From the NCBI GenBank assembly GCA_951406725.2, contig OX597820.1, forward strand, positions 35,402,001 to 35,466,000: DNA of 64,000 nt, written 5' to 3'. The translations under genes and the position numbers were made by a program. How positions within the stretch are numbered: the first letter of the stretch is position 1; each line of letters starts with the position of its first letter. Of this stretch, positions 5,747 to 55,998 are shown piece after piece. The notes beneath the pieces were generated by a model, which was given only the letters and a program-made list of their open reading frames with translations, was not told where the DNA came from and did no database searches. Origin of the DNA: Octopus vulgaris (lineage: Eukaryota).

Positions 5747-6083
5747 ACTCGTCCATTTTCCTGAGCGTCAAATTCATTGTTTGTAGTCTTTTGTTCCCTC
5801 GCGTGTCTATGTGTTTTCGTTTTGTATAATTTTGAACTATGTGTATACATACTTACATACATAGATATATACATACGTACATATACATATATATGCAAGC
5901 ATGTGTATATATATATATATATATAGTGACGTATTTTTGCCATTTCAATATGGCTAACCCCTAAGGGTGGATGCTACTGTAGTTTTTAGCCCCAGGAGGA
6001 CACGCTCCTCCAGCTGGCCATAGACACACTATCTGTGTCCTGTCAGTATTTGCAAAGGGAAGTCATCCTTCCCGTCTTCAACT

Positions 6084-6144
6084 TATGATACACACGGACT
6101 CGAGTTTCGAGGTATTGACCTCTCGTCAGCGTGTGACAATCATA
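6084..6144 (-). ncRNA. Type I hammerhead ribozyme (unit 1)
   Basis: Minus strand: CACACG CUGACGA GAGG-UCAAUA-CCUC GAAA CUCGAG UC CGUGUG; full core, 3 stems, predicted GUC cleavage between 6097/6096. Confidence 0.88.
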
Positions 6145-6436
6145 GTTGTCGCCGAGAATTAGATTTCCTTCACAAATACTTATACTTTTTCCAACGTCCA
6201 CTGTCGCTGATATTGAAAAAGTGAAATCAAACGATGATAAATATCAAAGTGAGTTATATACAGTAGCGGTAACACATCGTGACGTATTTTTGCCATTTCA
6301 ATATGGCTAACCCCTAAGGGTGGATGCTACTGTAGTTTTTAGCCCCAGGAGGACACACTCCTCCAGCTGGCCATAGACACACTATATGTGTCCTGTCAGT
6401 ATTTGCAAAGGGAAGTCATCCTTCCCGTCTTCAACT

Positions 6437-6497
6437 TATGATACACACGGACTCGAGTTTCGAGGTATTGACCTCTCGTCAGCGTGTGATAATCATA
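6437..6497 (-). ncRNA. Type I hammerhead ribozyme (unit 2)
   Basis: Same motif 353 bp downstream; predicted cleavage between 6450/6449. Confidence 0.88.
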
Positions 6498-6897
6498 GTT
6501 GTCGCCGAGAATTAGATTTCCTTCACAAATACTTATACTTTTTCCAGCGTCCACTGTCGCTGATATTGAAAAAGTGAAATCAAACGATGATAAATATCAA
6601 AGTGAGTTATATACAGTAGCGGTAACACATCGTGACGTATTTTTGCCATTTCAATATGGCTAACCCCTAAGGGTGGATGCTACTGTAGTTTTTAGCCCCA
6701 GGAGGACACACTCCTCCAGCTGGCCATAGGGGTTATCCATATTGAAATGGCAAAAATACGTCACGATGTGTTACCGCTACTGTATATAACTCACTTTGAT
6801 ATTTATCATCGTTTGATTTCACTTTTTCAATATCAGCGACAGTGGACGCTGGAAAAAGTATAAGTATTTGTGAAGGAAATCTAATTTCGGCGACAAC

Positions 6898-6958
6898 TAT
6901 GATTGTCACACGCTGACGAGAGGTCAATACCTCGAAACTCGAGTCCGTGTGTATCATA
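6898..6958 (+). ncRNA. Type I hammerhead ribozyme (inverted unit)
   Basis: TATGAT tgt CACACG CTGACGA GAGG TCAATA CCTC GAAA CTCGAG TC CGTGTG t ATCATA; predicted cleavage after 6945. Confidence 0.88.
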
Positions 6959-7878
6959 AGTTGAAGACGGGAAGGATGACTTCCCTTTGCAAATACTGAC
7001 AGGACACAGATAGTGTGTCTATGGCCAGCTGGAGGAGTGTGTCCTCCTGGGGCTAAAAACTACAGTAGCATCCACCCTTAGGGGTTAGCCATATTGAAAT
7101 GGCAAAAATACGTCACGATGTGTTACCGCTACTGTATATAACTCAATTTGATATTTATCATCGTTATATATATATATATATATATACATATATAATACTT
7201 AAATGCTTACAAATATACTGATGTTTAAGAGAGTACTCTTCTTAAAATATCATCGCAAAAACATTTCATACGTTTCTTTATACTGATTTCAAAATTGTGC
7301 ACCAGGCCTGCAGTACTGGGGAGAGGCTAAGTCGATCTCATCGACTCTAGTGATAAACTGATACTTCTTTTATCAACCCAGAAACGATGAAAGATAAAAT
7401 TGACTTCCGTAGAATTTGAACTCAGAACGGAAAGACTGGACAAAATGCTTAGCAGCATTTCGTCTGTTTTTACGATTCTAAGTTCAAATTCCGCAGAGGG
7501 TGACTTTGCCAGCTCGTCGCCTCTTTGTTTCTTTATATTAACAATTAACAGAGTATGTTGTTATATTCGTATGTAAATTCCTATGAAATTCTCTTATCTT
7601 TTCTCGACTTCCCACGCTGTACAGCAAATATGCTGTGTTAGATTTTATTCAAAGAAGGCTCCCATGGTAATTGCAATAATTCCTAATCTAATACGACATT
7701 CTTATTAACTATTATTGCGTAAAGATCTAGAATGTCATTGTCACGGTTACATAATGAACAAAATTGCAATCTATTTTCTTTAAGAACATATCAGCTATGC
7801 TTCATTGTCTATCTGCCTATCTATTTAGTTAGTAATCAATCACTCTATCTATCTATTATTTAGCTAGTAATCAATCAC

Positions 7879-9753: not shown

Positions 9754-11185
9754 TCATATCTTAAATATAGAACTGTACACATCAAGTTGTAGCTTCATTT
9801 CCTTCAATTCTTTGAATCGTCCGTCAAATTCCCTCTGCAGTTTGTTGATAAATTCCACACATTCCTGTAGTGCATCACAGTCCACTGAATTCAAAGTTTT
9901 CAGCGATGGGAAAAGGTCAAAGTTCTTTAGTAGTAATTGTTTCTCCCACAGACTTAGTCTCATTTTGAAAGCAGTGACACCGTCACTCATTTGCATAATC
10001 ATGTTTGACTCACCTTGAAGTTTCAAATTGAGTGTATTCAGATGCTTGGTGATGTCAACAAGGAAAGCCAAACATGTACAAAAATCATCATCTCCCAATT
10101 CGTAACCATGAATACACCTATTTCTTCTCTAAGCGCAAAGAATCTCTCCAAAACATTATCCCGACTTAGCCAGCGTGCCTCAGAGTGATAAAGCAGCTCT
10201 CCATATTCACTATCCATTTGCTCCGGGAAGGTTTTGAATTGACGATGATTCAAACTGCGTACTCTGATGGTATTTATGATTTTGTCCACGATATCCATGA
10301 CATTTCGTAGCTTCACTGCTTTTCCACAGAGGGCCTCTGGATGAATCAGGCAATGAACAGGTACAATAGGTTGACAGCTAAGTTCAAGTTGATAAGCCAC
10401 AGTTTTCAGAACACATTGCATGTGCTCCATCAGTTGTTATGGACACAAGCATCGCCCACTTCAAACCACCACCTTCAGCCGAACTTTCCAACGCCCTAAA
10501 ACATCTCTTCCTGTTGTCGTGTCTTTCAGTGAGACTAAGTCAAAAAGTTCCTCGGTCACTTTGGGGTCTTTGTCAATGCCACGAATGAAAATTACACAAA
10601 ATGCAGTGTCACACGTAACAGTACTCTCATCAAGTGCCAGTGAACACCCATCAAAATTTTGAGATAATGAAATTAACTGCTTCTCCGCACTAGTTGACAT
10701 TTCTGTAATTCGTCGAGCAACCACGTTAGCAAAAAAGACTAATTTCACTTTTCACTTTTTCTGGACAGAGAATTTGGGCAACATTCACCATACAGTCTCT
10801 CACGAATTAACCTTTAGTAGATGGGTGTGAGGCTTCTGCAATCATTTGACTGACTACATAGCTGACTTTTACATCTGAAGATTTGTGCTCTTTATCGAAA
10901 ACATGACTCTGTTGTGATAGAGATGACTTCAGTCGACAAAGTCTGTCATGCCGTAATTTTCCTTCCAACTTACCAAAGTCTTTATGTTGTGAATTGTAGT
11001 ACCGCTTCATATTGTATTCTTTGAGAACGCCAATTGTGTACAGGCAAATAAGACACTGAATATGACATTTCCTACTTGCACCTGCTTGACTCCGGATCAC
11101 AAAGTAGCTATCTTCCCAACGTTCTTGAAATGTTCTGTTTTCATCCGATATTTTCTGTATTTTTTTTTTCAGAAGCCAACTTGAT
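9754..11185 (-). pseudogene. hAT (SPIN/Charlie, GTF2IRD2-like) transposase pseudogene, 3'-truncated
   Basis: Consecutive frameshifted ORFs: ENRTFQERWE, CLICLYTIGVLKEYNMKRYY..H, SLALDEST..IFIRG..VTEELFDLVSLKDTTTGRD, HCLIHPEALC, LNHRQFK..YGELLYHSEARWLSR..LERFFALREEI, LAFLVDITKHLNTLNLKLQG. Confidence 0.92.
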
Positions 11186-11312
11186 GGAGAGTGATTTTAT
11201 TCAACGTCTTTTTGTTTTATTATCACGCATAAGTCGGATTACCCCCAATTTTAACTGAAAAGAAATGATAATGGTGTCCGGATTAGAAATTTGTTAAACA
11301 ACAATTAGTATA

Positions 11313-44604: not shown

Positions 44605-44641
<37 letters not shown>

Positions 44642-44843
44642 GAATGGAGTTGAACGACTATTTAACAGATATCCTTTATTCTCGACATATGTTTTGAAGG
44701 CTGCATATTCCTAATTCCGAAGGAATAAGGAGTACATTATGCAGATTTCTCATCAGGAAAATCAAGGAACTTATGTCGACATCAAAATGCACAAAAAACT
44801 TTTAGCTGACCGCTCTCAAGGAGCCCATGGCGATAATGAGTGT

Positions 44844-45191
44844 AAAATCTCTTCTGGAACCGATGTCTACTTCTATATTGGCGCAACCTCTTCTAAATTA
44901 GCTCAAAGGATCTCCAACCATTATTCCACTTTCGGAGATAAGAGAAAGCAACACAGTACGGGGCTAAGCAAATTAGTCTGGCGTCTGAAGAACAATAACA
45001 CTACGTTCAAGCTCGAATGGTCCATTTTGTCGGTGTCCTTCCCGTTTGATAAAGGCAGAAAATTTTGTGGCATCTGTAATTCCGAACTTTTTCATATTTT
45101 GTTCGCCAAAGGCCCTTTAATAAATACACTCGTCGAAAGATCCTACAGGTGTTTACACTGGAAAAGACACACCTTTCACTCATATAAATAG
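44844..45191 (+). pseudogene. PLE GIY-YIG endonuclease C-terminal fragment
   Basis: YFYIGATSSKLAQRISNH..STGLSKLVWRLK..EWSIL..CGICNSELFHI..LINT..CLH, typical PLE endonuclease end; the ORF 5' portion derives from the inverted repeat. Confidence 0.88.
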
Positions 45192-45750
45192 TGACTAATA
45201 TAGATAACCCCTCGATTTCCAAAAGAAATTTTTGCTATATTTCACCCCAATAGTCAAAAAGATTTTCTTATATTCCCAATTACTACTATCTATTCTTGCG
45301 TTGCCTCTCACCTCGCCCGATTCTTTCTCCCTTTCGCTATCTACTTTCCTTTCTCTACAGTAAACATAATCGAACACACAGACACAGACCTTTCACCTCA
45401 CAGCTGTCAGTTTTCTGACATCTACCCATCCACAAACACAATCACGCATTCAGACACACACATACACACATTAAGACAGTTATATACAGTCACACACACA
45501 GGCACTCATTCACAAAAGAAATCATTTAAAACCCACCATTCTTTTGACCTGCACTCTCTCACCTTACTATTCTTTGCCTCCCTCCTCCTACTTCGTTTGA
45601 ACTCTTGAACCTTTAGAAACTTCTAGATTCTTCTACATTCAGCACCCTGACGTCACTCATTATAAAGAGACACTCATTATCGCCATGGGCTCCTTGAGAG
45701 CGGTCAGCTAAAGTTTTTTTGTGCATTTTGATGTCGACATAAGTTCCTTG

Positions 45751-45835
45751 ATTTTCCTGATGAGAAATCTGCATAATGTACTCCTTATTCCTTCGGAATT
45801 AGGAATATGCAGCCTTCGAAACATATGTCGAGAAT
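45751..45835 (+). ncRNA. Type I hammerhead ribozyme with extended stem II in PLE pLTR
   Basis: ATTTTC CTGATGA GAA..CTGCATA....TATGCAG..TTC GAAA CATATG TC GAGAAT; the inverted copy at ~44678-44762 has a stem II substitution. Confidence 0.75.
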
Positions 45836-46038
45836 AAAGGATATTTGTTAACTAGTCGTTCAACTCCATTCTTTCATATACTTATAATTTTAAAATAAAC
45901 ATACAAATTTCCGCACGAAGACACGTAGTCTATGCCCTAGGGACGTAGCTTCAACCGTGTTCTTTCTGATGTGAATTTGCTACCCAGGTATCGGTTATCT
46001 TTCGAATTATCCTTAATAAGATAATTCATTCAATTACT

Positions 46039-46090
<52 letters not shown>

Positions 46091-55030: not shown

Positions 55031-55998
55031 TTGGGTTGTCCGGGAAGTTCGTTCTGATTTTTAAAAGAAAGAAAAGGGTCAATAAATACTTGCCATTACA
55101 TTTTTAATCAACTAAATATGAACCATTTTGTTGCACAATGCGTCTCCATCTTTCCTTTAACTTGAAAATACCCTCTTCCCAGAATTGAGGTGGTTTCATG
55201 GCAAAGAATTCATCAAGGTATCTTTTTACGTCATACAAGTGATTTTTTTACCATTAAGACTATTCTGCAGAGACTTGAATAAGTGGAAATCCGAAGGATC
55301 AATATCTGGTGAATATGGAGGGTGGGATAACACATCCCAGCCGAGCTGTAGCAATTTTTGTCTGGTTCCCAAAGAAACGTGCAGAAACGTACACCCTTCC
55401 TTTTGGCCAATTCTGGACGTTTCTCTTGGATTGCTGCTTTTAACTCGTCCAGTTGTGTGCAGTATTTCTCAGAATTAATTGTCTGGTTATTTGGGAGAAA
55501 CTCATATAACAGAATTCCTTTCCAATCACACCAGACACAAAGCAGGACTTTTTTAAGGTGAAGACCCACTTTTGGTATGGCTAAGGGTGGCTTATGTCGC
55601 TTACTCCAAGATCGCTTTCTCTGAACATTTCGATAGATAATCCATTTCTCATCACCTGTCGCAATTTGCTTTAAAAAAGGCACGTTAACATTCTGTTTAT
55701 AAAGCGAATCACAGATGGAAATGCGATCCACTTCCGTACAGTTCTTTCGGATAAAGAAACATCGCCGTAAACTGCGCATATTTCTTTGGTTGCTTGTGAG
55801 ACATTTTTCCCTTTATGGAAAAAGAAAAGCATCAAGTGCCGAAAATGAACTTTCTTAAAGGGTTACAGAATTAACACAGGTTAAACTGTGCTCTAAATGG
55901 AAGTGTAGTCAAATCCTATTTTGTGGACTCAACCATGTTCTAAAATAAGTCGAAAGGTAAGCCACTATAAATCGGCACGAACTTTCCGGACAACCCAA
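55031..55998 (-). mobile_element. Mariner element, internally deleted transposase pseudogene
   Basis: 30-bp TIRs TTGGGTTGTCCGG(G/A)AAGTTCGT.C.GATTT flanked by TA; ORF has FLKQIATGDEKWIIYRN..KKVLLCVWCDWKGILLYEFLP..TINSEKYCTQL; HPPYSPDIDPSDFHLF in another frame. Confidence 0.95.

Follow-up and report, generated by a model that had tools for sequence, protein, structure and literature searches.

A young 353-bp hammerhead repeat family of Octopus vulgaris fits the animal non-LTR retrozymes and bears a Penelope-like insertion footprint

In this work, we have analysed a stretch of 64,000 nucleotides of Octopus vulgaris DNA (the window) and the genome to which it belongs. Our results show that a 353-bp tandem repeat found in the window is a member of a young, dispersed, multicopy family. 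Judging from its sequence, we consider it likely that this family is a non-coding hammerhead tandem element inserted in trans by the reverse transcriptase (RT) and GIY-YIG endonuclease of a Penelope-like element (PLE), probably of the Neptune type. A preliminary description of the locus had proposed a retrozyme mobilised by a PLE-type RT, and this is still the best reading, given the dispersed young copies, the lack of an in-line ORF at the loci sampled, and a footprint that combines a tail with head-to-head arms. The family bears on which enzyme mobilises animal retrozymes and on whether their circles serve as template, and it is young enough for a clear footprint that can be tied to the PLE mechanism with two start sites.

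The array has two arms and is bordered on both sides by (TA)n. Its features are as follows, with unit position 1 being the first base 3' of the predicted cut:

5906-5925, no strand: (TA)n target, left flank, read from the sequence
5926-6729, minus strand: 804-nt left arm of 2.3 units, with the short 3' end, called S, at 5926 (unit position 171)
6091-6135, minus strand: type I hammerhead 1, predicted cut 6097/6096 (RF00163, 32.2 bits, E 9.8e-6)
6097-6449, minus strand: predicted 353-nt monomer between two cut sites (unit 1-353), GC 42%
6444-6488, minus strand: type I hammerhead 2, predicted cut 6450/6449 (RF00163, 32.2 bits, E 9.8e-6)
6724-6729, no strand: head-to-head junction of the arms, a 6-nt overlap with one mismatch
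6724-7165, plus strand: 442-nt right arm, inverted, with the long 3' end, called L, at 7165 (unit position 220)
6907-6951, plus strand: type I hammerhead 3, predicted cut 6945/6946 (RF00163, 32.2 bits, E 9.8e-6)
7117-7165, plus strand: 49-nt tail (unit 172-220) at the end of the right arm, missing from that of the left arm
7166-7194, no strand: (TA)n target, right flank

The tandem arm (5926-6729) was resolved by TRF into 2.3 copies with a period of 353 and 99% matches. The inverted arm (6724-7165) amounts to about 1.25 units of 353 bp and is identical to the left arm at 437 of 443 positions, with a 1-nt deletion. Units 1 and 2 differ at 4 positions, the incomplete third one is identical to unit 2, and no long open frame came out of a six-frame translation of the tandem arm. 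In all these respects the locus is as the preliminary description had it: 2.3 head-to-tail units of 353 bp plus an inverted 1.2 or so, few differences between units, no meaningful ORF, and insertion in (TA)n. The predicted ribozyme strand is directed outwards in the left and the right arm, and thus the arms are joined head to head. Elsewhere the window holds, on the minus strand, a Mariner-type transposase remnant (55231-55812; PF01359, E 1.4e-24) and broken DNA-transposon-like frames with a Spin-doc zinc finger (9754-11196; PF18658, E 2.2e-6).

The 33-nt core of the putative ribozyme, CUGACGA-GAGGUCAAUACCUC-GAAACUCGAGUC, is present at 6097-6129 (-), 6450-6482 (-) and 6913-6945 (+). The cuts predicted at 6097/6096, 6450/6449 and 6945/6946 would yield a monomer of 353 nt, and the exact 353-nt product foreseen earlier between 6450/6449 and 6097/6096 agrees with the positions of the cores. 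The Rfam model Hammerhead_1 (RF00163) matches the three sites with 32.2 bits and E 9.8e-6 each, which is below the gathering score of 34, and at that threshold no match was obtained in the array; the Infernal search proposed beforehand thus finds all three hammerheads by E value and none by the gathering cut-off. Taken together with the core and the helices, these matches uphold the earlier claim of a full type I hammerhead in each whole unit. Matches to miRNA families at lower scores were discarded as hairpin or microsatellite noise, and Rfam missed the variant hammerheads of older subfamilies and of Neptune and Hydra-like loci.

The monomer (6097-6449, minus strand) is predicted to fold with -118.8 kcal/mol (z -6.0; none of 100 shuffles was as good) into a long rod that prolongs stem I. 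This minimum-energy fold is not the active hammerhead fold, and the rod constrained to contain the hammerhead is about 6 kcal/mol less stable than the free fold. One detail given previously did not hold: GGGAAG/CTTCCC, reported as a separate hairpin, is absent from the minimum-energy fold, where these bases pair within the rod extending stem I. The ribozyme motif is retained in three subfamilies whose helices have changed and are still paired. Between family A and subfamily C the covariation is modest: the 45 pairs comprise 29 that are the same, 3 compensatory, 5 one-sided and 8 broken.

A DNA search of the octopus's own genome (2.8 Gb) returned 2456 candidates, of which the 40 scored were mostly 99% identical, and the 33-nt core has 439 exact, dispersed genomic occurrences compared with 0 for the control, which supplies the copy number for which the preliminary description had suggested a genome-wide search. 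Contigs C1-C3 contain 98 of the 439 cores in 60 insertions, from which we extrapolate to about 270 core-bearing loci. We mapped 89 insertions, with flanks of 1.5-4.5 kb, by joining the C1-C3 loci, an unbiased sample of about 22% of the cores, to the best matches of the genome search; removal of 3 duplicates left 86. Divergence from the column majority is 0.96% (648 of 67578 letters); the ribozyme core diverges less than the rest, to which we give no weight because the loci were chosen by their core. Two older sister subfamilies, B and C, have copies that are about 85% alike within each. Subfamily C is about 74-80% identical to the 353-bp family and subfamily B 62-74% over the alignable parts, and judged by eye, both have their ends at the two sites used by the 353-bp family; a classifier of S and L ends (see below) left 15 of 27 family C loci unscored. 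Subfamily B often has a U3:A8 core (exact in 4 of 7 matched copies), a variant reported from hammerheads of PLEs (PMC4209133) and also found in Neptune-type elements of the same genome. Repeats flanking loci L084, L087, L092 and L107 carry further hammerhead-like motifs of different sequence, which suggests additional retrozyme or PLE families in this genome.

The insertions carry a precise footprint. Among the 86 independent insertions, 3' ends fall at two fixed sites, S at unit position 171-174 and L at 216-220, and the spacing between them, the tail, is 45-49 nt. Inverted insertions number 46 of 86, every one head to head; 42 of these combine S with L, none S with S or L with L, and 4 have one odd end. 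The 40 direct insertions end at S in 32 cases, at L in 5 and elsewhere in 3. In the unbiased C1-C3 set, duplicates included, 26 of 30 inverted insertions are likewise S plus L. A TA-rich flank lies on at least one side in 82 of the 89 loci and on both sides in 61. Target duplications, unreadable within (TA)n, are 12 and 13 bp long at two non-microsatellite sites; 5 of the 7 rows of the scan for them were dropped as internal repeats or TA-like sequence. The 5' ends are variable and joined with microhomology or filler: arm junctions overlap by at least 3 nt in 14 of 46 cases, against a random expectation of 5.6%, and filler occurs in 15 of 46. The S and L ends are the Penelope 'tail' signature, for which work in vitro provides an explanation: a purified PLE begins cDNA synthesis at two internal sites, the distance between them being the tail, and extends both strands (PMC11167929). 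A partial tandem with an inverted copy, a one-ended tail and (TA)n targets make up the pattern described for PLEs in PMC8557442 and PMC3846280.

We propose that tandem copies of the element would be transcribed and that the hammerheads, probably acting as dimers, would cut part of the transcripts into 353-nt monomers that may close into circles. The PLE enzyme would nick both strands of a (TA)n target and start cDNA synthesis at S on one and at L on the other, with the RT going round the circle or following a multimer that was left uncut; head-to-head joining of the two cDNAs would follow, or else only one arm would be fixed. We put forward only tentatively the more specific idea that a dimeric Neptune-type RT, placed on S on one strand and on L on the other, rolls round a 353-nt ribozyme circle that lacks homology to the termini of the PLE itself. 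If that were true, this family would prove, from genomic data, that a PLE reverse-transcribes an animal retrozyme by a rolling-circle mechanism, and a fixed division of S and L between the strands, if true, would account for the tail being on exactly one arm of inverted PLE insertions.

What was the template? The predicted cut site is crossed by 118 of 132 arms, in 41 of them twice and at most six times, and the crossing is exact in 166 of 169 cases, in a sample enriched for such arms because most loci were chosen by their intact core. Near the cut site we counted four 5' ends compared with 3.7 expected, that is, no excess of the kind that would be a sign of cleavage in vivo. Variants were followed at the 65 loci in which 50 or more positions are covered twice. 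Of the 68 cases that involve subfamily variants, 62 have the variant in every unit; rare variants occupy all covering units in 23 cases at 18 loci (14 span both arms, 10 involve at least three units and 13 only two), some units in 5 cases and a single unit in 151. Given that rare and subfamily variants occur in all units, the shared letters tell that both arms of an insertion derive from one template. Rare variants in all units also imply repeated copying of one unit at some stage, which fits a circle and is best seen where private variants fill 5 of 5 or 6 of 6 units. In at least three loci, a variant common to both arms yet present in only some units points to multi-unit templates and against a circle-only model. 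From the exact crossing of the cut site together with the rare variants in all units, the template was probably either circular or a multimer left uncut; multi-unit arms may also stem from exact jumps of the RT on a cut monomer.

This leads to the strongest of the other explanations, which we judge unlikely, namely that the family moves only from uncut linear multimers and that hammerhead and circle are bystanders. It would account for the unit-specific variants common to both arms at three loci and for 5' ends without excess at the cut site, and unprocessed RNA was the main substrate of the purified PLE (PMC11167929). Three further points are counted against our reading: in the Xenopus set of Li, Clavereau and Pollet (2026, bioRxiv 10.64898/2026.07.22.740005), 1 of 9 retrozyme dimers was cleaved in vitro; PLE insertion in vitro did not need cleavage (PMC11167929); and the active fold is not the minimum-energy one. 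However, the private variants that fill all five or six units need repeated copying of one unit, the 151 single-unit variants argue against strong later homogenisation, and the ribozyme has been kept in three subfamilies with helices changed yet paired.

Sequencing runs give a weak hint of a 353-nt circle. The repeat sequence or part of it is present in 20 runs from 11 studies under eight organism labels; no RNA run was among those listed, which counts neither for nor against expression. Of 4 runs examined, X1 and X2, presumed to be RNA, gave one gap-free unbranched contig of 383 nt each, at depths of 23.6 and 139; where these contigs depart from the window, at three positions, they have the family majority letters. 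X5 and X16 were fragmented. A loop closed in a graph of 31-mers should have this length, 383 being 353+30; since a tandem array gives the same 383-nt loop and the runs are only presumed RNA, the contigs are a hint and not proof of a circle. By the listed differences, X1 and X2 have the same 353-nt sequence under two organism labels of one study, which may equally reflect closely related species, transfer or mislabelling.

Which PLE could provide the enzyme? None of the 89 loci has an RT or PLE ORF in line that shares the 353-bp unit, and the copies sampled are therefore not termini of coding PLEs; the opposite finding would, by the preliminary description, have spoken against its proposal. Autonomous PLEs were sampled from Hydra-like and Neptune/GIY-YIG (PF01541) families, and none carries the unit, so the partner is only a candidate. 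The names Neptune and Hydra-like are those that we take to apply from motifs compared with PMC8557442 and from general knowledge, not from a tree.

Several possible parents were rejected. The Hydra-like PLE family of the window has another terminal repeat; Neptune 3' regions match the unit only with E 0.6; PLE remnants beside copies L182, L186 and L202 are out of line; copy L196 is found at the 3' end of a Neptune that has decayed; at L234, L282 and L289 (TA)n lies between copy and PLE; and a pair of copies spaced 3250 bp apart on C2 is a local duplication with no ORF. The window's Hydra-like Penelope element (44639-46042) is itself 5'-truncated and lies in (TA)n with an inverted terminal arm; it has a GIY-YIG remnant at 44715-45191 (+), its own hammerhead from 45757 with a long stem II, and 3' ends about 165 nt apart by eye, against a published tail of 30-40 nt. 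Its family has 20030 candidates in the genome, with open frames up to 833 aa and an asparagine-rich insert.

The candidate partners, on sequence grounds, are two young Neptune-type families. The first has 781-aa ORFs that are 96.5-99.7% identical among 10 copies and copies of the second are 97-99% identical; a protein search with the Neptune ORF returned RT/GIY-YIG homologues. Both families have (TA)n targets and S and L ends about 30-40 nt apart, a shorter tail than the 45-49 nt of the retrozyme, and their scored inverted copies are S plus L in 4 of 4 cases. The Neptune family at L119-L128 (for example G000:C6:133342500-133350500) has 781-aa RT and GIY-YIG frames that are uninterrupted and have a further frame upstream. 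Its hammerhead core is of the U3:A8 kind, and its 3' region contains CCAAT/TGACGTC-like repeats; those of Neptune-type copies L104 and L110 contain a hammerhead-like motif with GCAA instead of GAAA. At L216/L220 a Neptune arm ending at L is joined head to head to a retrozyme arm ending at 274, which is neither S nor L (L216:3500-6100; G000:C17 near 47.713 Mb). This single hybrid has a 7-nt filler, no TA at the junction and a frameshifted Neptune arm, and may be a nested insertion followed by deletion.

It is still less probable, in our opinion, that the copies are 5'-truncated solo pLTRs of an autonomous PLE that escaped our search and that the 353-nt unit lacks an independent life cycle. The footprint is of the PLE type; our unbiased sample covers about 22% of the core loci (98/439), with flanks of 1.5-4.5 kb, and the search for PLEs was aimed at Hydra-like and Neptune-type families, not specifically at the Penelope/Poseidon clade; and 24 of 57 Xenopus retrozyme families match known transposable elements, nearly all of them PLE termini (bioRxiv 10.64898/2026.07.22.740005). 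In contrast, up to six perfect head-to-tail units lie in one arm with nothing in between, truncated coding copies should reach an ORF 5' of the repeat and 0 of 89 loci do, and the 3' regions of the sampled Hydra-like and Neptune elements do not match the unit.

Twin priming also produces head-to-head arms and 12-13-bp target duplications. These would thus be expected as well if the element were a SINE carried by a LINE and primed in this ordinary way at the RNA 3' end, an explanation that we find very improbable, since there is no poly(A) and no unit-specific 3' repeat, the second arm begins at a fixed and not a random site, the arms have several units, and a search of both strands with strict patterns detected neither a Pol III A box nor a B box. 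A chance hammerhead in a local satellite or in an assembly fold-back, for which one could invoke the long inverted repeats that can arise from reads and the Rfam score below the gathering cut-off, is ruled out for practical purposes, because dozens of loci on many contigs have differing junctions, the arms end at different fixed sites, which no fold-back can produce, and the sequence occurs in runs from 11 studies; the assembly artefact that the preliminary description had to allow for is hence dismissed.

How does the PLE-mobilised retrozyme that we favour compare with known systems? Non-LTR retrozymes of metazoans have been described in coral, mussel and axolotl (Cervera and de la Pena 2020, PMC7229834). 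Like them, the octopus family has tandem non-coding units within 150-450 bp (353 bp here, 350-390 bp in mussel) with GC below 50% (42%) and a predicted rod-like fold; a canonical type I hammerhead with a 6-bp helix I and a short palindromic helix III, present in each unit at 32.2 bits against the gathering score of 34; and dispersed copies (439 cores) with large target duplications, longer than 4 bp, where present (12 and 13 bp). Circles and cleavage have been demonstrated for the metazoan retrozymes (PMC7229834), whereas here they are predicted from sequence alone. PLEs were proposed there only as a strong candidate mobiliser, and the words 'inverted' and 'cephalopod' do not occur in the main text of PMC7229834. 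More recently, animal retrozymes have been filed as non-autonomous PLE derivatives (bioRxiv 10.64898/2026.07.22.740005); that work treats the same class with the same proposed dependence on PLEs, in a sample of 31 vertebrates, 3 insects and a coral, and argues by co-occurrence and pLTR homology, whereas we rely on the insertion footprint and found no pLTR homology. The preliminary description knew of no account of the family. Our literature searches found neither a cephalopod retrozyme nor a strict rule of one S and one L, but the class has already been described in the two works cited. In a 2026 octopus repeat annotation (PMC13282606), 'ribozyme' is absent from the main text and 'hammerhead' and 'retrozyme' from the single supplement; the 353-bp sequence may already be catalogued as an unclassified repeat, for example in the library of PMC13282606, Dfam or Repbase.

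With regard to insertion, the family shares with the endonuclease PLEs Neptune, Hydra and Naiad the partial tandems with a head-to-head inverted 5' copy, the one-ended tail, the (TA)n targets and a hammerhead in the repeat (Craig et al. 2021; Arkhipova et al. 2013; PMC8557442; PMC3846280), as seen in the 46 of 86 insertions with tandem and inverted arm, the 42 of 46 with S plus L and the 82 of 89 loci with a TA-rich flank. It differs from them by lacking an ORF, an RT and GIY-YIG frame between repeats being found in 0 of 89 loci, and by a tail of 45-49 nt instead of 30-40. The tail of those elements is called optional (PMC8557442; PMC3846280); in the octopus family, by contrast, one and only one arm is tailed in 42 of the 46 inverted insertions. 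Similarly, in the Anolis Poseidon element PAc (Frangieh et al. 2024, PMC11167929), the tail is set by two internal sites at which the RT starts, both strands of an AT-rich target are cut and extended, and a dimer is predicted. With PAc in vitro, no difference in start site was seen between the strands, while the genomic arms described here imply different sites, and the PAc template is coding, in contrast to the 353-nt unit. What our analysis adds is an insertion footprint that links a retrozyme to two-site priming by PLEs. The rule of one S and one L is a precise prediction on how PLE inversions are formed, and because the same genome houses young Neptunes, one of them with 781-aa ORFs, the RNA and its candidate enzyme are testable together in the published assay.
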